The notes under the pieces were generated by a model, which ran no database searches, was not told where the DNA came from, and worked only from the letters and a program-made list of their open reading frames with translations. A stretch of 64,000 nucleotides of DNA from sequence record OR352953.1; one strand, written 5' to 3'. Position numbers and translations under genes: made by a program. Origin of the DNA: Escherichia phage AV123. Numbering within the stretch: the first letter of the stretch is position 1; each line of letters begins with the position of its first letter. Positions 12,420 through 54,418 of the stretch are shown piece after piece.

Positions 12420-13409
12420 ATGACAGCACCAAAATCATGGGAACAATATAAAGAAGAGTGTATACCAATAGCAGAGAGTAAGCAAATCCAAATCTTAGGA
12501 TGGACGGGACAATGGAAAGGGGTCCACACAAAACTTGATTTGTTGTGCCATTGTGGTTATAAATGGGATACTACAAGTATTAACAGTTTTAAATGTGGTA
12601 GCGGTTGTCCACAATGTAGGAGGAAGAATATAAGGAAGTCACAAACAATGTCCGACGATCAACATATTGCAGATTTCTTTTCTACAGGGGAATTTAAGGA
12701 AGGCACTATCTTCACTAACACAGGAACACGGGGTAAAGGATGTAGGAATATTATCTGGATGGTTGAATGTCCTGTTTGCTCTCATGATGAATATGTTCAA
12801 GCAGGTGTTTGTGATGGTAAATTTTACTCTGAAGGAGATAACCTTAAACGAGGGTATATTCCGTGTCGTTGTGGGAACTATCGGTATACAGAAGACCAGA
12901 TCACCTATAGGGTAAAAAAGGAAGTAGAAGGGAAAGGGTATGTCTGGGTAGATTGGATTACCAAACCCTCTTCTATAGGTAAGTTTAAATATCTTTGTCT
13001 TGTGCATGGTGAGCAGATAGGGAGTGCTAATAATTTATTAAGCCTCGGTCGAGGTTGTCCTATGTGTGCTGGTCATAGTCAGCAGCAGTTATATATTAAT
13101 ATTGTTAAGGATGATAATATTATAGTTGCTCTTAAGTTTGGTATAGCTAAAGATAGTGATAGGCGATTAAACATTCAAAATAGCCGTAATCTGTTTTTTA
13201 TGGAACGTATTTGTTTATATGATTTTAGCACAGTGAAACAGTGTAAGGCTGCTGAAAGAGCTATAAAGAAAAAATTAAAAACTGGTATTTTAACAGCAAG
13301 AGAGTTGAAAGACGGTCATACAGAAACAGTAAGTGTTTCTGATTTGGAAAATCTTCAAAAAATTATTACACAATATGGTGGCAAGTTAGTATACAATAAG
13401 GAGGTGTAA
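12420..13409 (+). CDS. zinc-ribbon repeat protein with C-terminal T5orf172/GIY-YIG-like domain
   Basis: four C..C pairs; C-terminal YINIV..ALKFGIAKDSDRRL fits T5orf172 pattern. Confidence 0.45.
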   Translation: MTAPKSWEQYKEECIPIAESKQIQILGWTGQWKGVHTKLDLLCHCGYKWDTTSINSFKCGSGCPQCRRKNIRKSQTMSDDQHIADFFSTGEFKEGTIFTNTGTRGKGCRNIIWMVECPVCSHDEYVQAGVCDGKFYSEGDNLKRGYIPCRCGNYRYTEDQITYRVKKEVEGKGYVWVDWITKPSSIGKFKYLCLVHGEQIGSANNLLSLGRGCPMCAGHSQQQLYINIVKDDNIIVALKFGIAKDSDRRLNIQNSRNLFFMERICLYDFSTVKQCKAAERAIKKKLKTGILTARELKDGHTETVSVSDLENLQKIITQYGGKLVYNKEV

Positions 13410-13961
13410 ATGCGGATTACTGATAAGTATGTGTTCTTCTTTTCAGCAAAAGATGAATTTAGCAACTGGTATCTATCATCTTTTATTGAACCTTTAGCAC
13501 CCAAGTATAATAATTCTATTACAAGTTCTGTTGAATTTACTTGTGTGGAACAATATATGATGTGGAGAAAAGCATGTTTGTTTTATGATTACAGTATTGC
13601 ATCTTCTATTTTAACCGGAGATCTAAGATATACAGGAGAAAAAGAACAAGCATATTATAAGCGACTAGGCAGATTAGTTAAAGATTATGATGAAGATACC
13701 TGGACTTCTTTACGGGAGAAGATTGTCAAACGTGGTTTGTATCTTAAATACACACAAAATGAAGATCTCAAAAATAAACTTATAACCTACGCAGATAAGG
13801 AGTTCGTAGAGGCAAGCCCTTATGATTCTATTTATGGTATCAAAATGGGGATGTGGGATCGTGACGTGGAAAATAAGGACTGTTGGAAAGGACAAAATCT
13901 TTTAGGAAAATGGCATACAGACCTTGCTGTTTATCTAAAAGCACAATCTGATATTTCCTGA
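13410..13961 (+). CDS. NADAR (YbiA-like) domain protein
   Basis: 183 aa; FF.S..EFSNW, VEQYMMW.KA, SPYDSIYGIKMG, NLLGK motifs recalled from NADAR/DUF1768. Confidence 0.6.
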   Translation: MRITDKYVFFFSAKDEFSNWYLSSFIEPLAPKYNNSITSSVEFTCVEQYMMWRKACLFYDYSIASSILTGDLRYTGEKEQAYYKRLGRLVKDYDEDTWTSLREKIVKRGLYLKYTQNEDLKNKLITYADKEFVEASPYDSIYGIKMGMWDRDVENKDCWKGQNLLGKWHTDLAVYLKAQSDIS

Positions 13962-14382: not shown

Positions 14383-14400
14383 TGTTTTTATAGGTGTGTT

Positions 14401-14513
14401 AATGAGAATCATTTTCGTTTGTAAATGAGAATCATTATCATTTAACTATGTAAGTGATAATCATTCTCACTAAGAGAATGAGAATCATTAGCAAATGAGA
14501 ATTTTTCTCATTT
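14401..14513. promoter_or_regulatory. cluster of five Fur-box-like palindromes (ATGAGAAT-C-ATTCTCAT family)
   Basis: copies at 14401, 14424, 14454, 14474, 14493; one symmetric substitution from E. coli Fur core TGATAATCATTATCA. Confidence 0.5.
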
Positions 14514-14774
14514 AGAGAATAACGCGCAGGGGTGGTGTTTGTCTCGCGCTCCCGTGTCCCCTCGCCATACAATAAGAATAGCATAACCAACAACAAAAGC
14601 AAGCGATTATTTTTATCTTTACATTTCTTTACAAATTTATTTTAGACGAGCTACCAGCGATCAACCTTCCAACCAGTGCCCCCTGGTATGTTAGCCCCGC
14701 CTTTACGCCGTGGGGATGGCGCTTCCTCTTCTGTATGTAAAACAGTATAAGCCCGATCCCTGGGCTTGTCAAGA

Positions 14775-15041
14775 TTATTTTTTGTTTTCTTGCCAGGATA
14801 GGACACCTAACCAAAAATACATGTCGCCCCGCGCCCCTGGCGGGATCTTGCTTTCCCCGCCGCCACTGCAAGCCCATAGATAACCATTTGCGAACGTATC
14901 AAAATGATCTATTTCTTCCACCTTATGATCGCCCAGGTTGAGAACGGTTTCAACCTTTAAGCCCGTTGCGCTTGCTACCTGGTGCACCGTGCCGCCTTGC
15001 CAGCCTAATGAGTGCATGAGGTGTGAAGTAGTATTTGTCAT
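14775..15041 (-). CDS. hypothetical protein in GC-rich island
   Basis: 88 aa; ATG 15039-15041 with AAAGGG RBS; GC-rich unlike surroundings; overlaps a second ORF (14629-14877) in another frame. Confidence 0.35.
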   Translation of the reverse strand: MTNTTSHLMHSLGWQGGTVHQVASATGLKVETVLNLGDHKVEEIDHFDTFANGYLWACSGGGESKIPPGARGDMYFWLGVLSWQENKK

Positions 15042-25087: not shown

Positions 25088-25116
25088 CAAGGGCGCTTAT
25101 TGCGCCCTTTCTTTTT
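25088..25116 (+). terminator. rho-independent terminator
   Basis: GGGCGCTTATTGCGCCC then TTTCTTTTT. Confidence 0.65.
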
Positions 25117-25321
25117 ACCTAAATAAAGATGATAGCTTTTACCTATCAAAAACGTTCACCGAAAAAAGTGAATAGATCGCGGTATCGAGCTAATCAAGGA
25201 GCAGATGAACAACCATACCATGAAGATCATAAGGCGCTTACAACGTGTTTTAGACCGCTTATTTTTAATTTCTTCATGTAATTACCTGGCAAAAACAGCC
25301 TTTTTCTTGTCTTTCCTCTTA

Positions 25322-25392
25322 AATGATAATCATTCTTATTTATAGCTGATTATTTATGCAATAAATTGCATAATGCAATAATGAGAATCATT
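25322..25392. promoter_or_regulatory. two Fur-box-like palindromes
   Basis: AATGATAATCATTCTTAT at 25322 and AATGAGAATCATT at 25380. Confidence 0.45.
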
Positions 25393-25801
25393 CTTAACTT
25401 AAGACCATCTAACCTATAAAATAATAAGTTATCTAACTAAATTAAAACTAATTATCTCACCTTTATTTATAACTTACTGTTACTATCTCATTGATAACAT
25501 TGTATTAAACAATAATAACTAATATAAATCATTACTAAGCTAAATATAATCTATCTAACCCTTAAAACTACAATTATAATCTATCGAATTGTTGCACAAA
25601 GTAACTATTAAATTGTTAGTAACATTACTAAATAATTCACATCCTATCTATTTATGATCTAATCTTTACCTTCCTATCTATTACTTAGATAATCATTTCA
25701 TACAGTAACCATTTCATGTAGTAATCATTCCATACAATAACTATAACAAGAAATATAATTCGCAAGCGTATCATTAGCAGCCTATGCCGGACACATAGGC
25801 G

Positions 25802-25948
25802 GCTAATAATAACGCAACTACACACCCCACATAATAACCATCACCGATAGTTATTATTTGTGCTTATGTAGCTTGCAACAATTGCAAGCGCAACAATATA
25901 CTAGGGTATATTGTATCCCTTACATTGTTGCGGTGCGTTATTATTAGC
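25802..25948. repeat. long-range inverted repeat with internal palindromes
   Basis: GCTAATAATAACGCAAC at 25802 versus GTTGCG(GTG)CGTTATTATTAGC at 25927; inner ACAATATAC..GTATATTGT. Confidence 0.6.
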
Positions 25949-26241
25949 TAATGTTTAGAACATTGGCTATAATATAAGCTATCCAATAATAAACATGGTG
26001 AATAATGACACTGATGATCATAATGCGCCACCCTCCAGGGGGCGCTATGTGAACACAAAGAAATCTTTCTTGTCAAGAAAAATATCACCATTATTGCGCA
26101 AAATTATTTATATCTGAATAGATGATTTTTCATACTATTGCCCCCTTGATTATTACCATTTGTTGAGCCTACTTTCTTAAAAGCGCAATAAAATAGAATT
26201 ATATTGATTTTTAGTCGGTTTTATAGTACAGAAAGTATGCA

Positions 26242-26456
26242 AATGATAATCATTATCAGCTATCTTCCACGGGTGGCACTATTTCACACCAGATCATTTC
26301 ATTTGGCAAGGTGTATATAGATGTTTAGACTTGCCAAGCCATTGATTTCCTTAGAATTTATCTGTTTTGTTGTGAGTAGTACCTTTCTTGCTTAGAAAAT
26401 AATCAAAAGTCTTATAAGTCATTGAATGATAATACAAATGATAATTATTCTCATTG
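26242..26456. promoter_or_regulatory. Fur-box-like sites
   Basis: AATGATAATCATTATC at 26242 (15/15 to Fur core) and GAATGATAAT..ATGATAATTATTCTCATTG at 26424. Confidence 0.5.
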
Positions 26457-26814
26457 ATATTTGAGGGGGACGGTCGGCAGAAATCGGGGGGTGCTGAAAA
26501 TCGCGTTAAGCACCTCTCGCAAGCGAGCAGTATTTTGCGGCAAGTTATTGATATTATTGACTTTACGCTTATGAAAAGGGGGTGTGTCGAAATAAATCGG
26601 GTATACCGGAAAATTTTTGTGGCATAGATATTTATTTGTCTATATTATGTACAAAGGGGTGTGTTAAAAATAATAGGTATATATAGAATAATTGATAGGG
26701 AATATCTATACTAATTCCTCCATTAATGATATTCCTATGCTACTGCTCTTGTAATAGATGAAAAGACGCTGTATGATGTGTGGCATGAAACGTAAACTTA
26801 TAAAGGAGTCTGAT

Positions 26815-27180
26815 ATGTGTGTTCCTCTTAGCAGTCCACTGCTGTTAGAATTTTACAAAGCATGGATGCAAGATCATTCCTCAATGCATCGTGAGAATGT
26901 TGGTTTGTGTATTTGCCTTATGGATTATCTGGCAACCACTATGTCAAAGAAAAAACCTACGCGAGAAGATATAGAACATTTCAAAATGGTTCGCAGTAAA
27001 ACGCTGGAAGAGATGAAATTGCAATTCACGTGTGCTGGGCTATCCTCCTTCCTGCCCTTTAATGATGATCTTCTGTGTTATGAAGATGAAGGTAAGAAAC
27101 ATTCTTGCCATACTAACCCAGGGAGATTGCAGTGGGTGAAAGACAGACTCGAAGATGCAAATAATGCTTGCATTGAATAG
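26815..27180 (+). CDS. paralog family A protein (copy 1)
   Basis: LLEFY, GLCICL, PFN, RLQWVKDR motifs shared with 28961 and 29953; start reset to ATG 26815 (AAAGGAG RBS). Confidence 0.6.
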   Translation: MCVPLSSPLLLEFYKAWMQDHSSMHRENVGLCICLMDYLATTMSKKKPTREDIEHFKMVRSKTLEEMKLQFTCAGLSSFLPFNDDLLCYEDEGKKHSCHTNPGRLQWVKDRLEDANNACIE

Positions 27181-27250
27181 AAATGCCTGTACACTGTGTT
27201 CCATAAGATATGCAATATCGCGCATAACAAACTACTAATGAGAGGTGTAA

Positions 27251-27568
27251 ATGAGAACCTTAGCTTTGTATATTGATCCTCACTCCATTCGAGAAATGCG
27301 AGATGTACAACAGGATTATGAATTCTACCCAGAAATTTGTGAACGCTATGAAACTATTCTTAGTTCTGTAGAAGATCCAGATACTAGTGAAACAGGTGTT
27401 TCCCACTTACTGTGGATGTTGAATGAAATTCAGGATGGGTGTAATGATATGTCTGAAACCAAACGCCATCGTTGGCTAGGCTATATTCAGGGTGTTATGG
27501 TTATGAAAAACCTTATTACAGTGAATGATGAACGTAATGCTACACGCCCCGTCTTTAATGGAGCATAA
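27251..27568 (+). CDS. hypothetical protein
   Basis: 105 aa; GAGAGG RBS. Confidence 0.55.
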   Translation: MRTLALYIDPHSIREMRDVQQDYEFYPEICERYETILSSVEDPDTSETGVSHLLWMLNEIQDGCNDMSETKRHRWLGYIQGVMVMKNLITVNDERNATRPVFNGA

Positions 27569-27569
27569 C

Positions 27570-27785
27570 ATGAAAAGCATTCAGGTGTGTATTGAAAATA
27601 ATTGTGGTTATCTGGGATTGACACATGTTGCTTTCCCTCTTATGTTAGATGCCGATATCGCTTACAGCGGAGTTGCTTATGTGTCATTCAAGACAATGAG
27701 CCAAGTACCTGGCTGGAAGTGGGAAGTAGTTGATGTTGTTGAAGGAGAAGACTATGTTTTCCTTCCACACGAATATACTGTTTAA
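27570..27785 (+). CDS. hypothetical protein
   Basis: start reset to ATG 27570. Confidence 0.5.
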   Translation: MKSIQVCIENNCGYLGLTHVAFPLMLDADIAYSGVAYVSFKTMSQVPGWKWEVVDVVEGEDYVFLPHEYTV

Positions 27786-27799
27786 AAGAGGAAAAGAAG

Positions 27800-27976
27800 A
27801 TGGATAAAGAGACTACTGTGTACTTAGTAACAAAGAATACCCCAGGCTGGAGCCAATGCAGCACTGTACCTTACAAAATCTGTGCAACACTAGAACTAGC
27901 ACAACGTGCAGAAGCAGAAGTGAATGCCATGCAATACAGCTATGGTGAAATCATTCCTTTTACTCTTGAACAATAA
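27800..27976 (+). CDS. small hypothetical protein (58 aa)
   Basis: hand-translated; AAGAGGAAAAG RBS. Confidence 0.45.
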   Translation: MDKETTVYLVTKNTPGWSQCSTVPYKICATLELAQRAEAEVNAMQYSYGEIIPFTLEQ

Positions 27977-27987
27977 GGAGTTGTGTA

Positions 27988-28440
27988 ATGTTTGAAATTG
28001 GTAAAGTGTATCGTTTTAAAAACCCATCTTATATCCGTAAGTTTGCTAACGTGTCTGAGTGCAATAGCAGGATTGCTTCTTTTTTAGGTGATTCCTATTT
28101 TCGTGTATTAGATGTGGATGATTGGTATGGTGTCACTGCTTTGCAATCCTTAGCAGGAGAACAAGAAATTATCGCTCAAAATGAAGGAGACTTTCTTCAG
28201 TGTTACACGTTGCTTGCAAAAAGTGAGTTTGAGTATTTTGTAGAAGTTTTAGAGGAAGCACCAAAAAGTAAACACGAAGAGAAATACCTGCTTGTAGTGG
28301 ATGGAGTTCCGATCATGGAAACCATCTCCCGTGAGGAAGTTGAAAAAGAGGCGAAACGTTACAAGCTGAATCGTACACAGAGTGTAGTTGAAGTCTATTC
28401 TCTTGTTGGTGTTGCAGATATTAGTGTGAACATTGTATAA
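27988..28440 (+). CDS. hypothetical protein
   Basis: 150 aa; AAGGAG RBS. Confidence 0.6.
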   Translation: MFEIGKVYRFKNPSYIRKFANVSECNSRIASFLGDSYFRVLDVDDWYGVTALQSLAGEQEIIAQNEGDFLQCYTLLAKSEFEYFVEVLEEAPKSKHEEKYLLVVDGVPIMETISREEVEKEAKRYKLNRTQSVVEVYSLVGVADISVNIV

Positions 28441-28651
28441 TATATGTGTAATGACAGATACATTCTTCGTGTATCTGATAAGTCCCCTATGTTTGACTGG
28501 CGGGCTGGTGGCTACTAGCTCCGATGCAAGGTCTGACAGACGTGGAAAAGGAGGCTTATGTGTATACAAAAGAAGAGATAGAAAGTAGCCTTTATTTGAC
28601 AGATAACATTAAGAATGGTATCTTTGAGTGTAAATTGAAAGGAGAGGAAGA

Positions 28652-28951
28652 ATGACTATTACAGAAAAACTGCGCTGTATTGCAAAGCAAAGTGGAGAAG
28701 GCTTATGGTTTCCTATTGAGGAAATTATTCAGGACTGTTATGATCAGGCTAAGACTGGCAAATACTCCAAAGCATTTAAACCATCTGTTTTCGGTTTGGA
28801 TGATTATCCAAAAAATGAACAAGCAAAGAAACGACAAGTTGATTTGATTGATCTGGCTATGGAAGCACTACGAGAGCATGGACTTAGTAAGGTGTATGCT
28901 TTAAACACCAAAGAGGGCTTTGTAGATTCAGTGATCGTAGACTGGTATTAA
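28652..28951 (+). CDS. hypothetical protein
   Basis: 99 aa; AGGAGAGGAAG RBS. Confidence 0.55.
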
Positions 28952-28960
28952 GGAGAAGTC

Positions 28961-29329
28961 ATGCAAGAGAATAGTAAAGTGTGTAGCATGAAAAGCAGCC
29001 CCTATTTGCTACAATTTTATGAGTGGTGGTTAGAACAAGAAGATACAAACTTTAGCAAAAAGCATTATGGTCTTTGCACGTGTCTTGTAGACTTCTTATA
29101 CAATATTGCTTGGATAAAAGATGTTGAGAATGTAGCAAACCTCCAGTCCTCTGTACGAGAGGAAATGAAGGAACAGTTTAAGAAAGCGGGTTTGAACCAT
29201 TTACACCCATTTAATACAGATTTCTCACATTACTTTACGGAAACAGAGTTAGGCATTGCACACCTTAACAAAGAACGTGTACAATGGGTGATTGATCGTA
29301 TTCGTGATATGGAGGAATACAATGGTTAA
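28961..29329 (+). CDS. paralog family A protein (copy 2)
   Basis: YLLQFY, GLCTCL, HPFN, RVQWVIDR. Confidence 0.6.
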   Translation: MQENSKVCSMKSSPYLLQFYEWWLEQEDTNFSKKHYGLCTCLVDFLYNIAWIKDVENVANLQSSVREEMKEQFKKAGLNHLHPFNTDFSHYFTETELGIAHLNKERVQWVIDRIRDMEEYNG

Positions 29330-29540
29330 GTTTAAAACTTTCTGTGCGATTACTGTTTGCCTTATTCTTGCATACGTGTTATTCTCTGGTATCGTTCGTT
29401 TAGGCGAGTATATGGCAAGAGAAGCTCGTGAAAGTGCAGCTAAAAAAGAACAGTGTATTGTGTTCAAGCATCAAAGAGATGCTGAAAAGTTTCTCGCACT
29501 TGATTGTAATCGCTATGTATCTTATCAAATGTATGAGTAA
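29322..29540 (+). CDS. paralog family B small membrane-anchored protein (copy 1)
   Basis: TM helix then KEQCIVFKHQRDAEKFL; start reset to ATG 29322 (GGAGG RBS). Confidence 0.5.
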   Translation: MVKFKTFCAITVCLILAYVLFSGIVRLGEYMAREARESAAKKEQCIVFKHQRDAEKFLALDCNRYVSYQMYE

Positions 29541-29549
29541 GGAGGATTT

Positions 29550-29774
29550 ATGGTAAAACGTCTGGAATGGGATGCGTGTACTGCTCACGCTTGTCACTGT
29601 GATATTGTTGAAGACCCTAATGGAGAAATGGTGTATTATGAGGATTACGAAGCATTGCATAATGCTGTGATCGCTTTACTGGATGATATTAGCTCACGCT
29701 ATCCAGGACAACAGTTTACGTGTCCACATATCCAACTGTTAGCCAAACTTACGGAGTATCCAAGTGTTCCATAG
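29550..29774 (+). CDS. paralog family C protein (copy 1)
   Basis: CDIVEDPNGEMVYYEDYEAL shared with 34910 ORF. Confidence 0.5.
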   Translation: MVKRLEWDACTAHACHCDIVEDPNGEMVYYEDYEALHNAVIALLDDISSRYPGQQFTCPHIQLLAKLTEYPSVP

Positions 29775-29775
29775 T

Positions 29776-29943
29776 ATGGGTATCCCTGAACAACTGCTAT
29801 TTATTGTAGGATTAGTAGGTTTATTGGCGGCTGGCGCTAAAGCCGCTTCTCACACGCATCACATAATGTTAAGATTTCTATTCCTACTCCCTTCTATCCT
29901 TGTATTATTAGTCATACTGATTGATAACATTTTTCACAATTAA
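29776..29943 (+). CDS. small membrane protein (55 aa)
   Basis: hand-translated; two hydrophobic helices. Confidence 0.4.
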   Translation: MGIPEQLLFIVGLVGLLAAGAKAASHTHHIMLRFLFLLPSILVLLVILIDNIFHN

Positions 29944-29952
29944 GGAGAGGCT

Positions 29953-30537
29953 ATGAGTAAAGTTATACCAAGCAGTTATGAATTATTACAGTTTTATGTG
30001 TATTATATAGACTGGGTTAGTAGATCGAATGTTAAAGACAATGCGATGTTTAGTAAAAACATCTGTTTAACAGAAAGTATCTTCCGTTACTGGCACACAG
30101 GTAGAAAGTGTACACACAGTGAAGCTATGCGCATTGTAGGAGAATATCTGGAGCAATTGCAAAAAGCAGAGCTACCTGTCCTTCACCCATTCAATGAATC
30201 TAAAGAAGAATTAGAACAAGAATGTAGGGAAGGTAAGTGCCATTTGAATGAAAAACGTATCGAATGGGTGAGGCAACGTTTAGCCGATGCAGGGAATCCT
30301 CCTAGTGACTCTGACTATACGTGGTATGATGTAGAGGGTTTAGTTCAAGGTTTTGAGGCTTGTGCTATAGGTAATACCAACTTTGCCAAAGTTTTATGCG
30401 AGGTTTATGATCTGGCAGATAAAATCCGAAATCACGGATGGAAACAAGAGCATAAAGAATCATATGAACGCCTTGACAAGATTTTCAAACAGATCTATTC
30501 TAACCACAAAGAGATGTTCCAAATGGAGGATGTGTAA
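29953..30537 (+). CDS. paralog family A protein (copy 3, extended C-terminus)
   Basis: LLQFY, HPFN, RIEWVRQR; 194 aa. Confidence 0.6.
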   Translation: MSKVIPSSYELLQFYVYYIDWVSRSNVKDNAMFSKNICLTESIFRYWHTGRKCTHSEAMRIVGEYLEQLQKAELPVLHPFNESKEELEQECREGKCHLNEKRIEWVRQRLADAGNPPSDSDYTWYDVEGLVQGFEACAIGNTNFAKVLCEVYDLADKIRNHGWKQEHKESYERLDKIFKQIYSNHKEMFQMEDV

Positions 30538-31223
30538 TGAAAGAGATTATGTTTGAAGGGCATCGTTACGAAGTTCCAGACAATGCAAATTTCATGGCTC
30601 GTGATATCACTGGAGATGTGTTCTGGTTTGAAGATGAACCTGTGTTTTCTTCGAACAAACACTGGTTTTCACAACAATCTTCTTCGGAAAATATGACTTT
30701 TGGCTACGTAGAGCCTAAAGTGCGCTGCAAAGCAGCTTCTTCTTTGGTAAAAATTTCCCAAGATGATCAAGAAAATACTCCAGATGTTGTTAGTGCACTA
30801 CTGAAATACATTGCAGAACTTGAGAATAAAATTAAAGAAGCAGAAACTAAGGTGAAAGCACGATCAGCCATCATTGAAGCTATGTCTGAACGTATCTTAG
30901 AGCTAGAAGATTTGTGTGGAGAGGCTTATCAAGTGGTCGGTGCACTGGCTTATGAAGCACAAATGTTTGAAACTTCAGAACAAGTTTCACATATGTTAGA
31001 TAATTTAAGTGAATGTAAAATGATTCATGATGATGTATTGCCATTTTGTTGCAATGTTAACAAAACAGAGCAAACAGAAGATTCAGAAACAGTTTATGTT
31101 CCGCTGATGTGTGTTCCAGATCATTTAAAAGGTGTATTCTCTTGTAAATGGTCACTGTTGAGCGTTACTAATTGTGGTGAAAACTATTCTGCCAACATTG
31201 AATTGCTAAAACACGTTAAATAA
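30537..31223 (+). CDS. hypothetical protein with central coiled coil
   Basis: 228 aa. Confidence 0.6.
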   Translation: MKEIMFEGHRYEVPDNANFMARDITGDVFWFEDEPVFSSNKHWFSQQSSSENMTFGYVEPKVRCKAASSLVKISQDDQENTPDVVSALLKYIAELENKIKEAETKVKARSAIIEAMSERILELEDLCGEAYQVVGALAYEAQMFETSEQVSHMLDNLSECKMIHDDVLPFCCNVNKTEQTEDSETVYVPLMCVPDHLKGVFSCKWSLLSVTNCGENYSANIELLKHVK

Positions 31224-31233
31224 GGAGAGTAAT

Positions 31234-31638
31234 ATGTGGTCTGTTAAAATCAAATATAATGCGCAGTATTATGGTGGAAAGCCTTACGAAGTTGTTATTT
31301 GTGACTGTATCTCTAAAGAAGTTGCACAGCTTTGTGGCACTGGTGTTAGTGAAGCTATGAACAAAATGCATAACTCGACTGTGCGTTACCTGGATCAAGA
31401 TATTCCAGAAGATGTAAATGACTATGCTTACGAAGTTATTTACAGTGAAGGTAAGAAGCTCTCTATTGAAGATGCACTTAAAGCACTACCTGCTATGTGC
31501 AGCCCAACACCAGAAGCAGTTAAAGAGATTTTACCAGAATCCAACCCCGATGAATATGCCTCTATGGTTGCTTCAGACATGTGGAATCTCTGTCGAGAAA
31601 CTATGATTAAAAATCTTGTGGAAATGGCGCATGAGTAA
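31234..31638 (+). CDS. hypothetical protein
   Basis: 134 aa; AAGGAGAG RBS. Confidence 0.6.
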   Translation: MWSVKIKYNAQYYGGKPYEVVICDCISKEVAQLCGTGVSEAMNKMHNSTVRYLDQDIPEDVNDYAYEVIYSEGKKLSIEDALKALPAMCSPTPEAVKEILPESNPDEYASMVASDMWNLCRETMIKNLVEMAHE

Positions 31639-31849
31639 AACACACTTTATACATCCGTTTGATCCAAAGAACAAGGCGGTTATACACCGCCGTTGGACTG
31701 AAACGCGCATTACAAAATGTCCTGTGCCAGCAGCACAGGAATATAACAAAACATATAAAGCAGAATTTGTGGAGTACACCTTTGTAAATAACAAAGGGAA
31801 GGAGGTTTATGTTCCAGAATACTGCCTTTGGATAAAATGGGAGGAATAA
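31631..31849 (+). CDS. hypothetical protein
   Basis: start reset from TTG 31616 to ATG 31631. Confidence 0.45.
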   Translation: MSKTHFIHPFDPKNKAVIHRRWTETRITKCPVPAAQEYNKTYKAEFVEYTFVNNKGKEVYVPEYCLWIKWEE

Positions 31850-32016
31850 TGCAAACATTTTTTATCGACAAGTTCAATAAAAGTATGAATACGTGGATGG
31901 CAACATTCACTATGCAATTTGCGTCATTTAAAGAAGCTCAAGAATGGTGCGATCAACACAAGGATTTTGATTTTTACTATCAAGTTAATGCAAACCTTTC
32001 TCCAGAGGAGAAATAA
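31849..32016 (+). CDS. small hypothetical protein
   Basis: start reset to ATG 31849 (GGGAGGAATA RBS). Confidence 0.45.
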   Translation: MQTFFIDKFNKSMNTWMATFTMQFASFKEAQEWCDQHKDFDFYYQVNANLSPEEK

Positions 32017-32017
32017 T

Positions 32018-32362
32018 ATGTTGGCTGATATTGAAATCCTTATGTACCGACAAGGTATGATCAAAATGTGGCTAGATTCTTTTAGCAACATATACTGCAC
32101 AGTACGATCAGCAGACGAGCGTAAAACGCTTATTTTATCTGCTATTGTTGACAAACAACGTTTCTTCAAAGAAGTTTTGCAAACAGGCTTCTCCGATGCA
32201 GGAGTAGAGATTGCAACGCTTAGTCTTGGAGTGCTGTCTTACTTGGAATCCGTTGTTTTATATGTCTTCTCTTTAGAAGAACACTTGCAATTCAAAGCAT
32301 TAAAACTTATCTTAGATGCTGCAATTGACATAGAACAAAATCGAATTGATTCTTTTGAATAA
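32018..32362 (+). CDS. hypothetical protein
   Basis: start reset to ATG 32018 (GAGGAG RBS). Confidence 0.5.
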   Translation: MLADIEILMYRQGMIKMWLDSFSNIYCTVRSADERKTLILSAIVDKQRFFKEVLQTGFSDAGVEIATLSLGVLSYLESVVLYVFSLEEHLQFKALKLILDAAIDIEQNRIDSFE

Positions 32363-32378
32363 AAATAAGGAGGAAACT

Positions 32379-32837
32379 ATGCAAGAGGTTAAACATTATC
32401 CACATGGTCGTAGTTTTGTAGCTGTATGGCATGTTCCTGCTCGTAATGAACTATTTTGTGCATCTTTTCATTACAAAGATGGACAATATTTCACCTATGA
32501 CGAAACGATGGATGATTTTATCCCAGAGTGCGATCATGGGTATACACCAATGTTCTTTAAACGTATGAAAGCTCGTTTCTTCGTTACAGATGTTGATGGT
32601 GAACCTACTTGGCACATCGAAGAAGATTGGCAAGATTCTGTAGATATTAAAGAAGCCCCAGAATGGGCTACATTACTGGTACACGTCAAAACCCCTACTC
32701 TTGACGTTATGGCGTGGGTTAATCATGATGATACCCATTACCAATACATAAATGGTAGCACAGAGATTTCTGGTGAGATTATTGGTCGTTGGAAGCCTAC
32801 GAATCAGGTTGCTATTGTCGGGTATAAGACAGTATAA
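32379..32837 (+). CDS. hypothetical protein
   Basis: start reset to ATG 32379 (AAGGAGG RBS). Confidence 0.55.
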   Translation: MQEVKHYPHGRSFVAVWHVPARNELFCASFHYKDGQYFTYDETMDDFIPECDHGYTPMFFKRMKARFFVTDVDGEPTWHIEEDWQDSVDIKEAPEWATLLVHVKTPTLDVMAWVNHDDTHYQYINGSTEISGEIIGRWKPTNQVAIVGYKTV

Positions 32838-32838
32838 T

Positions 32839-33033
32839 ATGAAAAATAGTGTAGATTGGGATGATTTATCCGATTTTGAAAAATGGTTCTTAGGTAGTGG
32901 TTGTTATGCAGATGGGGATCTCGAAAGAGATCCTTCTGGAAATTACATTATGCCATTAACCCAAGGTTTTTATGAGTGCTGGTGCGCAGCACAAAACAAC
33001 GTACTGAATAAGGAGACAACACAATGCAATTAA
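32839..33033 (+). CDS. small hypothetical protein
   Basis: start reset to ATG 32839. Confidence 0.45.
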   Translation: MKNSVDWDDLSDFEKWFLGSGCYADGDLERDPSGNYIMPLTQGFYECWCAAQNNVLNKETTQCN

Positions 33034-33263
33034 ACATCGGACAACCAATTTTTGATGCAGATACTGGTCAATATGCAGTGATTGTTGCTCGTATGAGCGG
33101 TGATGACCTTATTGTTTCAGAACTACTCGGATCAGATCCGCAACTGCGCGTAGTATGTGATCTATATCTTCGAGACGAAAGTGATCGCATTGCACTGAAA
33201 GAAGATGGTATGCTCTACTATACCTGGACTAGAGATCCTGGGGTAACGGAGGTAGAGGTATAA
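33024..33263 (+). CDS. hypothetical protein
   Basis: 79 aa; AAGGAG RBS. Confidence 0.55.
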   Translation: MQLNIGQPIFDADTGQYAVIVARMSGDDLIVSELLGSDPQLRVVCDLYLRDESDRIALKEDGMLYYTWTRDPGVTEVEV

Positions 33264-33562
33264 TGGTAAGGAATAGGGGTTTACATAAAAGAAGACACCT
33301 TACTTACTGGCATCGTAAAGTACATGAACCTGTATCAAAGAAAGAATGGCAATATCTGCCTTATGGGAAGGAGCGAAGAAAGTATCTGTTAGCTCACTTA
33401 AGGGTACATGGTTCTCTTCCTGTTAACAGTAAGTGGCAATTGCAAACAGCTTATGACGAAGATATGAAATATCTGTTAAAGAGAGGCATTATTTGCCTTG
33501 TTAAGATCGGACGATGGAAATCTCGTCAATCTTATATCGTACTTAAACAGGAGAAACGATGA
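33263..33562 (+). CDS. highly basic small protein
   Basis: 99 aa, K/R-rich. Confidence 0.5.
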   Translation: MVRNRGLHKRRHLTYWHRKVHEPVSKKEWQYLPYGKERRKYLLAHLRVHGSLPVNSKWQLQTAYDEDMKYLLKRGIICLVKIGRWKSRQSYIVLKQEKR

Positions 33563-33810
33563 ATATCAAAGATGTTGTAGCATACGTAGAAGATGAAGTT
33601 AAAAACCATACAAGTTTACTGAAAGTAATGGTTGTGGTTAAAGATGGTATTGGACAAGTAAACGTACAACATGTCTTATCTGACACTGTATACAATGTGT
33701 TTGAATGTAAAGAAACACCTCATGGAGTACGTGTGGTTTATATTGATAACAATTTCAAAGAATGTGTGAGACATACCTTAGAAAATGAACTAAGGATCAC
33801 AATCTTATGA
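33559..33810 (+). CDS. hypothetical protein
   Basis: 83 aa. Confidence 0.5.
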   Translation: MNIKDVVAYVEDEVKNHTSLLKVMVVVKDGIGQVNVQHVLSDTVYNVFECKETPHGVRVVYIDNNFKECVRHTLENELRITIL

Positions 33811-33980
33811 GTTATTATGTTGTACCTTATGCCAATAAGTGGAGAGTAAGAGAAACTTGTTTTCTATTCTCCTGGTGGGCTACGTTCGGAGATGGTTGTG
33901 GAAATGATACAGGAAAGCCTGTAGAGTACGACACAAAAGAAGAATGTGAACAATGGATAAAATTAACACAAAGATGTTGA
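33807..33980 (+). CDS. small cysteine-containing protein (57 aa)
   Basis: hand-translated; overlapping stop/start. Confidence 0.4.
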   Translation: MSYYVVPYANKWRVRETCFLFSWWATFGDGCGNDTGKPVEYDTKEECEQWIKLTQRC

Positions 33981-34033
33981 CACGATCTTAACTTCTTGTT
34001 AGTATCAATGTGTACTAACGATAAGGAGGGTTT

Positions 34034-34258
34034 ATGAAGTCTGTAAACAAGTTGCAACAATTTTTGTTATCAACAGCAATCTTTTTGCTTTTGTTAATTG
34101 GTATTCTGTATGGTGCATCTAACTTATACAATCTACATAGTGATGTAGAACAGAATAAAGAGAAGTGCATCATTCTAAAACACAAGAAACAAGCAGAAGA
34201 TTTCTTAAAGAATAAGTGTTACAACTACATTGATTATGAGGAGACAAACAATGATTAA
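34034..34258 (+). CDS. paralog family B small membrane-anchored protein (copy 2)
   Basis: TM helix then KEKCIILKHKKQAEDFL. Confidence 0.5.
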   Translation: MKSVNKLQQFLLSTAIFLLLLIGILYGASNLYNLHSDVEQNKEKCIILKHKKQAEDFLKNKCYNYIDYEETNND

Positions 34259-34493
34259 AGAATTAGGTATGCGAGTATACAGTGAGTGGACTCCAAGCAA
34301 TGGCCCAGGAGTTGTTGCAGCTAAATGTATCAATGGTCGTATTGAGTACCTGGAAGGGTATGAAGATAATGAAGAGTTAGTAGATTATGCTAAATCTTTT
34401 ATTGAAGATGATACAGACTTTATTGTATTATATGATACAGGAGAGTTAGAGTATGGATATGATGGAGATGGGGATATCTTTGAACTTCAATAA
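34251..34493 (+). CDS. acidic hypothetical protein
   Basis: start reset to ATG 34251 (GAGGAG RBS). Confidence 0.5.
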   Translation: MIKELGMRVYSEWTPSNGPGVVAAKCINGRIEYLEGYEDNEELVDYAKSFIEDDTDFIVLYDTGELEYGYDGDGDIFELQ

Positions 34494-34585
34494 GAGTAGT
34501 AAGTAAGGTATAAAGAGTATATAGTTAGTTATAGAGTTAGTAACATTACATATACTCTTTCCATGTATAACATGGAATATTCTCT

Positions 34586-34638
34586 ACCTCGCTATCGCTC
34601 GGTATATAAGATTAGGGTAGCATGTTTTTTACGAAAAG
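34586..34638 (+). other. conserved intergenic element, copy 2
   Basis: matches 7415-7468 including identical TTAGGGTAGCATGTTTTT. Confidence 0.5.
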
Positions 34639-34700
34639 TAAAACTGTTTATACCGATTGATAGCAGGTTTTTAATAGATTCTATCTATGAGGAGTAGAAA

Positions 34701-34919
34701 GTGTACAAATTATATAAAGGAAAAGATAAGTTTACGGGTAATACATCTGGTTTCTATGTAACACCACGTGGCGTTGCCGTATTTGATTGGATTCCTGGTA
34801 CTCCAGATCGTGAAATGATCTCTCTTGTAAAACTGTCGGAACAAGAGTACACTTACGGTGACATTACAACATTCTATTCTCGTGCAGAAAATCCAAAACT
34901 GATTGCGGAGTGGGAATAA
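34701..34919 (+). CDS. hypothetical protein (GTG start)
   Basis: 72 aa; GAGGAG RBS 7 nt upstream of GTG. Confidence 0.45.
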   Translation: MYKLYKGKDKFTGNTSGFYVTPRGVAVFDWIPGTPDREMISLVKLSEQEYTYGDITTFYSRAENPKLIAEWE

Positions 34920-35182
34920 TGGTTACACGATATGATTTAGAGGTGTACAGCCAAGGTGCTGCTGGTCAATGTGATATTGTACCAGATCCAGAAGGAGACT
35001 ATGTTCTTCTTGCTGATTACAACAAGCTAGAAGAAAGACTTCTGGCTGTGTATGCTAAAGAGAACAAAACAATCTGTCCTTATTGCAATGGAATGGGTTG
35101 GGTTGTTGCAGATGTTGGACAAATGTATGAATGTGTGCCTTGTAAAACCACAGGATTTATTGAAAAGGATACTGACAAATGA
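34910..35182 (+). CDS. paralog family C protein (copy 2) with C-terminal Cys cluster
   Basis: CDIVPDPEGDYVLLADYNKL; CPYCNG..CVPC. Confidence 0.5.
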   Translation: MGIMVTRYDLEVYSQGAAGQCDIVPDPEGDYVLLADYNKLEERLLAVYAKENKTICPYCNGMGWVVADVGQMYECVPCKTTGFIEKDTDK

Positions 35183-38179: not shown

Positions 38180-38185
38180 CACATA

Positions 38186-38208
38186 AACCCGCTTCGGCGG
38201 GTTTTCTT
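38186..38208 (+). terminator. rho-independent terminator
   Basis: CCCGCTTCGGCGGG then TTTTCTT. Confidence 0.65.
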
Positions 38209-51156: not shown

Positions 51157-51987
51157 TCACTCCTTGTTTAAAAGTATAGTTAAAGTTCTTACAATACCGC
51201 TATCAACACTTCGCGGATTTAAAGTAGGATCTGTTTTTAAATAAGATGTTGCTGGTCTGACTGCTTTGGAATTATAGGTTGAAGCAGATACAGGATTAAC
51301 TGTAACAGACAAATCTACAACAAGAAATATCTTTCGTGCAAAATCATACCAAGAAATATAATCTGCACCTGCATAGTGTACAATTTTACTATTTACACCA
51401 TCTTTTACAAGTTTAAAAATTGTTTCTGCAAGATCAGGTGCATAAGTAGGACATGATAAATGATCACATACTACATTAAATTCTTTTTGACCACCGTTGT
51501 AGCGTTCCAACATAGTTTTCAAAAAGTTATGTCCAAATTCACTATAAACAGAAGCTGTTCTGATAATAAGTGCTGTAGGACAAACTGTTTGTACTAAAGT
51601 TTCACCTAATTGTTTACTGTAACCGTAGGTGTTCAAGGGGTTTGTTTTACTATCTTCTGTGCCAGCAACATGCCCATCAAAAACATAGTCTGTTGAAATA
51701 TGTACAAACTGTATCAGTAAATCATTACATGCTTTGGCAATGTTTGTTGCACCGTATGCATTAACATTTATACAGGTGTTAACATCTTCTTCAGCTTTAT
51801 CTACTGCCGTGTAAGCCGCACAATTCACAACAACATCAGGCACATGCTGTACAAGACTATTCATAACATCTTTAAAGTTGGTAATGTCTACATCACTTGC
51901 TTCAATCAAAATAACATCTTCGGGCGCAACTTTTGCCAAAGACTGTCCTAATTGACCTTTTGAACCAAAGATTAAAAATTTTGTCAA
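51157..51987 (-). CDS. rmlD: dTDP-4-dehydrorhamnose reductase
   Basis: FGSKGQLG Rossmann motif, RmlD-like length; TTG start overlapping rmlC stop. Confidence 0.75.
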   Translation of the reverse strand: MTKFLIFGSKGQLGQSLAKVAPEDVILIEASDVDITNFKDVMNSLVQHVPDVVVNCAAYTAVDKAEEDVNTCINVNAYGATNIAKACNDLLIQFVHISTDYVFDGHVAGTEDSKTNPLNTYGYSKQLGETLVQTVCPTALIIRTASVYSEFGHNFLKTMLERYNGGQKEFNVVCDHLSCPTYAPDLAETIFKLVKDGVNSKIVHYAGADYISWYDFARKIFLVVDLSVTVNPVSASTYNSKAVRPATSYLKTDPTLNPRSVDSGIVRTLTILLNKE

Positions 51988-53428: not shown

Positions 53429-54418
53429 TTAAACTTTATTTTCCCACCACTCTTTGTTATCTACATACCAATCAATGGTTGAATAAAGTTTTTCTTCAAA
53501 TGTGCCTTTAGCTTTCCACCCTAATTCCTTTTCAATCTTATAAGGATTCACTTCATATCTTAGATCATGTCCAGGTCTATCTGTAACCATCTCAATTAGG
53601 CTACAAGCATCTGTTTCAGATGGATACACCGCATCCATATAATCACAAATCATATAGATTACATCAATATTAGTTCTAGGGTTTCTGCTCCCAATATTAT
53701 ATGTTTCTCCAGATTTGCCTTTAGTTACTACTAGGTGTAATGCTTCTGCGTGATCGTCAACGTATAACCAGTCTCTTACTTGAAGACCATTGCCATAAAC
53801 AGGGATTGGTTTATTCATCAAGATATTTGTTATCGTTTTAGGTATTAGTTTTTCTGGATGATGATATGCTCCAAAATTATTTGAACAATTTGTTATAACT
53901 GTCGGAATACCATAAGTACGATGCCACGCTCTTACCAAATGATCGCTTGCTGCCTTAGATGCAGCATATGGACTACTTGGCTTATAAGGATTCTGTTCTG
54001 TAAACGGATAATCCCCTTCTTCCATATCACCATATACTTCATCTGTTGAAATATGATGGAACATTTTAAGATTTGATTTATCTCCCATTAAACGAACAGC
54101 TTCTAGGAGATTAAATGTCCCAACAATATTTGAATTTATAAAAACACTCGGTGATGCTATTGAATTATCTACGTGACTTTCTGCTGCAAGATGCATTATA
54201 TAATCTGGATTAACATCTGCCACAATCTTAGCAGTTAACTGCGCATTTGTCAAGTCAACACGACAAAACTTTACATTGGGTGTTTCTGATAAATTTCTAG
54301 GGTCTGAAGCGTAACCCCATTTATCTATAACGTAAATATCATTTTTAGTATTTTTAGCCAGGAAACGAACTACCGCACTTCCAATAAAGCCTAAACCACC
54401 TGTTACTAAGTATTTCAT
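53429..54418 (-). CDS. rmlB: dTDP-glucose 4,6-dehydratase
   Basis: TGGLGFIGS Rossmann motif, YAASKAASD catalytic YxxxK; 329 aa. Confidence 0.85.

Follow-up and report, generated by a model that had tools for sequence, protein, structure and literature searches.

Seven small genes on the plus strand of Escherichia phage AV123 form three families of paralogs which, by their sequences, are true relatives that diverged long ago. They lie between positions 26815 and 35182 of the 64,000-nucleotide stretch of record OR352953.1 analysed here, which is called the window below. Family A has three members (A1, A2 and A3), and families B and C have two each (B1 and B2, C1 and C2). We consider it probable that these old paralogs encode small accessory proteins of mixed origin in an early block at the left end of the genome, and that the A proteins act as cytoplasmic binders.

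Three families of diverged paralogs

All seven open reading frames (ORFs) are found on the plus strand at the positions given in a preliminary description of this DNA, except for the start of C2. In an all-against-all BLASTP comparison of the 321 ORFs of the window with at least 45 amino acids, A1 and A2 were 39% identical over 117 amino acids (E = 6e-24), A2 and A3 were 30% identical over 114 amino acids (E = 5e-9), and A1 matched A3 with E = 1e-6. B1 and B2 were paired with E = 4e-7, and C1 and C2 with 36% identity over 44 amino acids (E = 2.7e-4). No further member of A, B or C was detected among the 321 ORFs by BLASTP. When Smith-Waterman scores were compared with those of 5000 shuffles per pair, not one shuffle reached the observed score in any of the five pairs (z = 36, 12 and 16 for the A pairs, 14 for B1-B2 and 9.5 for C1-C2). 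The soluble tail of B1-B2 alone yielded z = 13, so that the signal is not merely that of the hydrophobic anchor. Reciprocal cross-hits in the PHROG database back each of the three families, and searches with the family profiles picked out precisely these ORFs along with the orthologs in nine further genomes. The small size of the proteins and the short C1-C2 match are what could be said for a chance likeness of unrelated short ORFs. BLASTP, shuffles, PHROG cross-hits and profile searches refute this explanation, and its probability is practically nil. Significance of the alignments, on which the preliminary description depended, is thus far beyond chance.

A1 (26815-27180, plus strand) encodes 121 amino acids, A2 (28961-29329, plus strand) 122 and A3 (29953-30537, plus strand) 194. 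Against a hidden Markov model (HMM) of the family they scored E = 9e-32, 1e-35 and 2e-31, respectively. A1 and A2 belong to PHROG 2510 (E = 6.5e-22 and 1.3e-25), whereas A3 matches PHROG 27059 over its full length (E = 2e-138) and also PHROG 2510 (E = 2.4e-17), its A domain comprising residues ~4-116. A2 is of the phi92 gp006 type and A3 of the phi92 gp010 type. The A1 start at 26815 is an ATG preceded by AAGGAG and agrees with UAB1_gp001 (366 nucleotides); the longest ORF begins at 26758. The motifs previously noticed in the three copies turned out, in the form LL.FY, GLC.(C/N)L, PFN and R..WV, to be invariant or near-invariant columns of a 117-sequence alignment. A1 to A3 carry all signature residues, with NIC instead of GLC in A3. 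Absent from A1 and A2 is the C-terminal extension of A3, 75 amino acids long (residues ~120-194, 30313-30537) and acidic with an isoelectric point (pI) of 4.9. It has weak matches to PHROGs 24126 and 12188 and a marginal PADLOC match to DzbA (E = 0.015).

The B pair is likewise as described before, two copies with a membrane anchor and the motif KE.CI..KH...AE.FL, which is invariant in the family. B1 (29322-29540, plus strand) has 72 amino acids and an anchor at residues 7-25, and B2 (34034-34258, plus strand) has 74 amino acids and an anchor at residues 10-28. Each contains one hydrophobic 19-mer with a Kyte-Doolittle value of 2.55 in B1 and 2.41 in B2, and B is predicted to be a small membrane-anchored protein. 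Its positive-inside signal is ambiguous as to topology. The tail of ~28 amino acids reads KEqCIvlKH..dAEkFL...C..yV.Y and has two invariant Cys; identity between B1 and B2 is 31% overall and 46% in this tail. B1 falls into PHROG 15662 with a cross-hit to PHROG 23204, and B2 into PHROG 23204 with a cross-hit to PHROG 15662. Among the genomes examined, B occurs in Stephanstirmvirinae loci only and in 0 of 7 unrelated contigs, no database-wide search for B having been run. No relative of B was found in the PDB.

For the C pair, paralogy and motif hold, and the boundaries had to be modified. C1 (29550-29774, plus strand) has 74 amino acids and a pI of 4.6, and matches PHROG 23083 with a cross-hit to PHROG 22955; C2 (34919-35182, plus strand) has 87 amino acids and matches PHROG 22955 with a cross-hit to PHROG 23083. 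The start of C2 is most likely the ATG at 34919 and not the GTG at 34910 proposed earlier: this ATG overlaps the stop of the previous gene, and relatives annotate 264 nucleotides. The core C.(I)V.DP.G..V...DY..L is common to C1 and C2 over the N-terminal ~45 amino acids only. In phAPEC8, the ortholog of C1 is the N-terminal half of gp0036 (12420-12875; 56% identity). C2 ends in a zinc-finger-like tail of the CxxCxGxG type, CPYCNGMG...CVPCKTTG, that C1 does not have and that matches PHROG 13972 (E = 3.4e-9). Compared with the CxxCxGxG zinc finger of DnaJ and anti-TRAP, CPYCNGMG fits the motif and CVPCKTTG fits it partly. Corresponding matches stay far below the cut-offs: PF00684 (E = 0.017; 15.8 versus 32.7 bits), NF058604 (E = 0.0024; 17.9 versus 65) and PF15777 (E = 0.029). 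Family C proteins are soluble and acidic, have no hydrophobic segment and are limited to Stephanstirmvirinae-type contigs of ~150 kb. A search for a PDB relative of C found none. We also considered C1 as a Lar-like restriction alleviation protein and rejected it. The match to PHROG 3592 (E = 8.7e-4) extends over 47 residues only and has no Pfam counterpart, the four zinc ligands are not kept, with only C17 and C58 invariant across the C homologs, and phi92-like phages have been reported as exceptionally sensitive to restriction-modification (RM).

The region from 26.7 to 35.3 kb is 96-98% identical to Justusliebigvirus coliphages, among them vB_Eco_PATM (98%), Paula, EmilieFrey and UAB_1. By this similarity the window comes from a Justusliebigvirus (phi92-like) coliphage of the Stephanstirmvirinae, a group with genomes of ~146 kb. 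In the records of the relatives the region corresponds to phi92 gp001-gp026, every gene of which is annotated as hypothetical. Ratios of nonsynonymous to synonymous substitution (dN/dS; Nei-Gojobori, pooled across seven Justusliebigvirus relatives) were restricted to orthologs because synonymous sites between paralogs are saturated at 30-40% amino acid identity. All seven genes are intact in the relatives, with dN/dS between 0.03 and 0.23 (A1, 0.23; A2, 0.10; A3, 0.09; B1, 0.22; B2, 0.19; C1, 0.033; C2, 0.07), compared to 0.05-0.25 in neighbouring genes. All seven are under purifying selection, and at the level of orthologs the seven relatives showed no trace of diversifying selection.

A widespread domain with a tendency to multiply

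Family A extends far beyond this phage group. A profile of the three paralogs searched against 1.84 billion representative proteins identified 688 clusters (made at 50% identity) with E <= 1e-3, and 130 with the stricter E <= 1e-10, mostly stand-alone proteins of 100-120 amino acids. The profile was essential, as a word-indexed search with A2 alone retrieved only A2's own cluster. The HMM built from 117 sequences retrieved exactly three ORFs from the window at E <= 1e-31. The signature derived from these sequences reads LL.FY..W ... GLC.NL ... EM..QF..AGL....PFN....Y..E....CH.N..R..WV. P83, F84 and R106 show no variation, C39 and W109 are conserved in 99%, and E68, Q72 and N103 in more than 90% of the sequences. 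L16, F19, Y20, G37, L38, F73, L78 and V110 reach at least 90% as well, and H101 is conserved in 79%.

The AlphaFold2 model of A2 calculated from the 117-sequence alignment is confident and consists of six helices, with a predicted local distance difference test (pLDDT) score of 90.9 and a predicted template modelling score of 0.83; it supersedes a run with only three sequences (pLDDT 72). According to this model, family A is an all-alpha domain of ~110 amino acids. The proteins are mildly acidic (median pI 5.3) and devoid of hydrophobic segments, and are predicted to be soluble; the family is phage-specific. Neither a sequence nor a fold search found a solved relative in the PDB. In a viral structure library the matches were uncharacterised proteins of Pectobacterium, Burkholderia, Rhizobium, Achromobacter, Delftia, Klebsiella and Pseudomonas phages.

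Pfam, NCBIfam and PADLOC contain no model for family A. When A, B and C were compared with Pfam-A and NCBIfam, nothing reached a curated cut-off and the best matches were spurious (E = 0.007-0.2). Ten family A members are all unnamed or 'hypothetical' in the databases, and literature on the PHROG identifiers, the early genes of phAPEC8 and phi92, rV5, phiWec and accessory-gene screens yielded no mention of the A, B or C genes. PHROGs 2510, 27059 and 6418 agree with our assignment in that A1 to A3 contain the same ~110-amino-acid domain. They differ from it by splitting the family into several clusters, and they give no function. PHROGs already groups these proteins, and it is their multi-copy habit and the structure model that are unrecorded in the sources searched. 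Two other readings of the conserved residues, a reversed HEPN-like H.N..R motif and a papain-like Cys-His pair, were tried and discarded in view of the 79% conservation of H101, the all-alpha fold and a sole HEPN match at a template modelling score of 0.22.

A comparison of copy number by HMM, which the preliminary description had proposed, revealed 2 to 9 A genes per Stephanstirmvirinae genome: two in PD06 and W22, three in the window, UAB_1, KKE7M and 92CQ, four in PATM and EC_OE_11, seven in phAPEC8 and nine in phiWec186. Three tandem A genes occur in an unrelated 164-kb metagenomic phage contig (GCA_016294905.1, 4983-9712 of the extracted locus), and several single proteins combine two or three A domains, for instance the three-repeat protein of MK552140 (a 263-kb record). 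The domain thus tends to multiply as dispersed genes, as tandem genes and as intragenic repeats. In the metagenomic contig a NADAR-domain gene comes immediately after the tandem genes, and an AcrVA2-like gene lies 3 kb downstream. Another contig has an A gene 2.2 kb from a Gad2 (anti-Gabija) gene. In both, the anti-defence genes are annotated by Pfam and no more than 3 kb away from A.

The contexts of A sampled elsewhere always consist of small unknown early, accessory or replication-proximal genes. They include the Drexlerviridae phage Sadiya, the rV5-like phage W70, where A follows the DNA polymerase gene, and the N4-like phage Fifi287, where A is near an early RNA polymerase subunit at a genome end. 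In a P22-like prophage, the domain forms residues 89-193 of a mosaic 402-amino-acid protein. The gene of this protein lies in the early-left 'ea' region, with Erf/Anti-RecBCD_p2/Ead_Ea22 genes on one side and DUF551/integrase on the other. The ea-region genes of lambdoid and P22-like prophages are non-essential early accessory genes. The likeness to proteins of this region (EaA, Ead/Ea22, DUF551) consists in the A domain of the mosaic protein lying beside Ead_Ea22 and DUF551 genes, and the C-terminal module of that protein matches an annotated 'EaA protein'. In contrast, the window has three stand-alone A genes without an EaA module in a virulent 146-kb myovirus. A megablast search for the prophage A-domain gene in complete E. 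coli genomes did not find it.

The left genome end and the origin of the copies

The seven genes belong to a dense plus-strand block of ~11 kb, from ~26.5 to ~38.2 kb. Together with its 1.65-kb upstream leader, the block is enclosed by two terminators, a strong one at 25089-25109 and a bidirectional one at 38185-38204, and the GC skew flips at ~38 kb, at the latter. The left direct terminal repeat of UAB_1 is annotated at positions 1-343 of its record, position 36 of which maps to 26201 in the window at 96.6% identity. Because this repeat maps there, the physical left end of the genome can be placed in a putative terminal repeat at 26166-26508, which holds two Fur-box-like sites, and A1 would be the first gene past it, at a distance of ~300 nucleotides. 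By the same mapping, the window appears to run through the joined genome ends with the 343-bp repeat at ~26166-26508. Between the strong terminator and A1, the stretch 25110-26757 (1.65 kb, 32% GC) has no credible genes. Three 37-nucleotide repeat units start in the leader at 26005, 26237 and 26432, and an Rfam scan of the leader upstream of A1 matched no family.

Gene content changes at this end. The first slot past the terminal repeat (26758-28000) varies among phages that are otherwise 96-98% identical. A1 is missing in PD06 and W22, which have a phi92 gp001-type gene in its place, and PATM and EC_OE_11 carry an additional A copy straight after A1. The subsequent genes differ too. The left-end slot is a hotspot of gene-content change. 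Moreover, the segment 27126-27980 alone matches another genus, Phapecoctavirus, with 85-94% nucleotide identity and the rest of the region does not, which suggests a module recently exchanged by recombination.

The preliminary description had taken the arrangement of A, B and C as a sign of segmental duplication and divergence. The three families are in fact adjacent at 28961-29774, where the 3' end of A2 overlaps the start of B1 by 8 nucleotides and C1 comes next. At the second site, near 34034-35182, B and C recur in the same order but are not adjacent, since two genes without relation to A, B or C lie between B2 and C2 (34251-34493 and 34701-34919, plus strand; PHROGs 23012 and 16110; dN/dS 0.11 and 0.05). 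The order B before C is thus repeated on the same strand at distances of one and three genes. The chance of both pairings is ~0.011 for four genes placed at random among 40, and ~0.073 given that B1 and C1 are adjacent. The pair of an A gene and an overlapping B gene directly behind it is kept in another genus (phAPEC8 gp0030/gp0031), and the divergence between B1 and B2 is of the same order as the 36% identity of C1 and C2. All this would agree with a model in which an A-B-C or B-C cassette was duplicated, after which the copies diverged, genes were inserted and the second A was lost. However, an HMM search in all six frames found no A homolog near B2. No similarity across the two sites was found among the intervening genes, the flanking genes and PATM_189, and C1 and C2 have different C-termini beyond their short common part. 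There is no similarity between the copies at the DNA level apart from one 38-nucleotide stretch (76%) in the C core, and B and C are ~17 genes apart in phiWec186.

Moreover, the A copies are not mutual closest relatives. A2 is nearer to family member P0011 (47%) than to A1 (39%), and for A3 several metagenomic members (31-38%) are nearer than A1 and A2 (29-30%). In a neighbor-joining tree, the A copies form deep, separate lineages. Because they have closer relatives outside, ancient divergence or separate acquisition fits them better than cassette copying within the genome; the test is informative for A only, as B and C have too few homologs. We therefore regard the cassette duplication as unlikely, and retain of the earlier proposal the ancient paralogy and the repeated B-C order. 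The left-end clade of the tree comprises A1, the extra copy of PATM and EC_OE_11, phAPEC8 gp0018/0019 and three phiWec186 genes, and only these left-end copies look like local tandem duplicates. In the scenario that we favour, they would have arisen by local tandem duplication. A2 and A3 would go back to very old duplication, to acquisition by recombination from a large pool of phage genes, or to both, and the B-C pair may reflect a single old duplication or a functional coupling. No recent copying of an A-B-C cassette would be involved.

Other genes of the block complete the picture. Between C1 and A3 lies a gene for a 59-amino-acid hydrophobic protein (29764-29943, plus strand; hydropathy 2.78; dN/dS 0.063) that is intact in 8 of 8 sequences, does not belong to A, B or C and has no PHROG or Pfam match. 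PATM, W22 and PD06 have an additional gene of 82 amino acids between B1 and C1 (PATM_189), which is absent from the window between 29540 and 29550. Its GenBank label, 'M20/M25/M40 family metallo-hydrolase', is implausible at 82 amino acids and looks like a propagated mis-annotation. No Pfam domain was found in 20 scanned proteins (19 from the block and the upstream gene, the latter by PHROG scan), and nearly all PHROG matches of the block point to families without a known function. Named ones are limited to the Lar-like match (E = 8.7e-4) and goF (E = 3e-6), both marginal, and a 'DNA ligase'-labelled family matched by the C2 tail. For 27251-27568, which we had suspected to be a dNTP pyrophosphohydrolase N-domain, Pfam gave no support.

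Two further observations concern other parts of the data. On the minus strand, 53429-54418 and 51157-51987 form another paralog pair (28% identity over 162 amino acids, E = 3e-7). Four records named 'Campylobacter phage' with the host C. jejuni (MG065645, MG065689, MG065639 and MG065656) are 97% identical to this coliphage region and are probably mislabelled or contaminant assemblies.

Candidate roles of the three families

Small host-takeover and accessory blocks of large virulent phages are exemplified by the early ORFs of T4, the pre-early region of T5 and the early genes of N4. The block of the window resembles them as a dense one-strand array of ORFs of 50-200 amino acids at the genome end, nearly all without known domains, and its gene content likewise varies between close relatives. 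It differs in that we found no sequence relation to characterised early proteins of T4, T5 or N4. In the mechanism we propose, the A proteins would work in the cytoplasm during early infection, where they would bind stoichiometrically to a conserved component of host or defence, or else to a small ligand. Binding would occur via a conserved polar site formed by S13, Y20, C39, E68, Q72, N85, H101, N103, R106 and W109, and the variable surfaces and repeats of the paralogs would widen or tune specificity or build oligomers. B would act at the envelope through its Cys-pair tail, and C is a small acidic protein. Alternatively, A may be an enzyme.

Several points weigh against this proposal. Homology searches in Pfam, NCBIfam, PADLOC and the PDB yield no function for A, B or C, and the polar residues conserved in A might form a structural network in the protein interior instead of a binding or active site. 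The orthologs are under purifying and not diversifying selection, unlike a simple arms-race binder. Anti-defence genes are nearby in only 3 of ~10 sampled contexts of A, and are expected in accessory regions anyway. The block is presumably expressed early, as judged from its position and small-ORF organisation only, and the twice-repeated B-C order (p ~0.01-0.07) leaves room for a real old block duplication. Finally, phi92-like phages were reported to be very RM-sensitive (PMC8594841), which makes an anti-restriction role unlikely.

The suggestion that the array resembles those for host range or superinfection exclusion found no direct support. T4 Imm and Sp and P22 SieA are exclusion proteins that are small, located in the membrane and made early. 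B1, B2 and the 59-amino-acid protein at 29764-29943 are membrane-anchored too, and a location right past the genome end would allow very early expression. B1 and B2 share with T4 Imm and Sp a length of ~70 amino acids, one N-terminal hydrophobic helix and presumably the early region, but have no sequence similarity to any such family and possess a tail of their own with the two invariant Cys. A and C, on the other hand, account for five of the seven genes and are soluble and acidic. No Pfam or NCBIfam family, exclusion families included, was matched at E <= 1, and PADLOC gave none. That A is also found in phages whose hosts differ widely, and in the ea regions of prophages, suits a general intracellular role better. 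By these features, only B is compatible with an exclusion role. As to host range, the lateral tail fibres were described in the BASEL paper as the likely basis of the wide range of hosts that these phages have (PMC8594841). We rate an exclusion or host-range array as very unlikely.

A further candidate is an anti-defence function. Here, the genes would encode inhibitors or sponges, A being a ligand- or effector-binding module and its copy number broadening the systems countered. The array is in the genome region that enters first, copy number and gene content vary between close relatives, and elsewhere A is found beside NADAR and AcrVA2-like genes, near Gad2 and, in the prophage, within one operon region with Anti-RecBCD_p2. 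Further points in favour are the strong conservation of a polar site in so small a domain and the fusion of two to three domains per chain, the latter being typical of oligomeric binders, and the weak Lar-like PHROG match of C1 (E = 9e-4). Yet, the neighbourhood amounts to guilt by association, no structural similarity to any solved anti-defence protein was found, and the marginal Lar-like match goes with zinc ligands that are not conserved. The unusual RM sensitivity of phi92-like phages and the purifying selection on the orthologs point the same way. Anti-defence proteins are accordingly a possible but not a likely explanation of the array.

The Fur-box-like sites in the non-coding leader are a separate lead. 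The Fur box of E. coli has the consensus GATAATGATAATCATTATC. Scored against this consensus, closely matching sites upstream of A1 are at 25322-25338, 25380-25396, 26239-26257 and 26437-26453, the two proximal ones (26239-26257 and 26437-26453) being inside the putative terminal repeat. The best match is GCAAATGATAATCATTATC, with two mismatches. The window contains five Fur-like matches with at most three mismatches, where 0.09 would be expected; for core matches, the count is 11 and the expectation 1.09. Boxes are kept at distances of ~380-590 and ~1300-1470 nucleotides upstream of the first A gene in PATM, phAPEC8, phiWec186 and the distant metagenomic contig L010. Immediately downstream of the proximal box, phAPEC8, phiWec186 and L010 also have a block GAAAATCGCGTTAAGCA in common with the window. 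The sites may serve Fur- or iron-dependent control of early transcription, or Fur titration. Four more Fur-box-like sites stand in tandem within ~95 bp (14398-14492), in a ~670-nucleotide gap between the 3' ends of the convergent genes 13410-13961 (plus strand) and 14629-14877 (minus strand). This second cluster is thus in no obvious promoter position.

A more far-reaching idea is that A is a new immediate-early effector, either a sponge or enzyme for a small molecule of the host or of immunity or a multi-target inhibitor scaffold, with an unsolved fold and a conserved Cys/His/Asn/Arg/Trp pocket, encoded in an array whose transcription is gated by Fur. We consider this combination quite improbable. 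If it were true, Fur gating would tie the takeover by the phage to the iron status of the host.

In summary, paralogous ORFan families are common in the early regions of phages, and finding them in a phi92-like coliphage is ordinary as such. What our analysis adds is the delineation of A as a large phage-restricted domain for which there is neither a curated model nor a solved structure. Independently, the Fur-like sites offer a lead on the coupling of early transcription to host physiology. As A sits where host-takeover and anti-defence genes usually occur, it is a reasonable target for characterisation.

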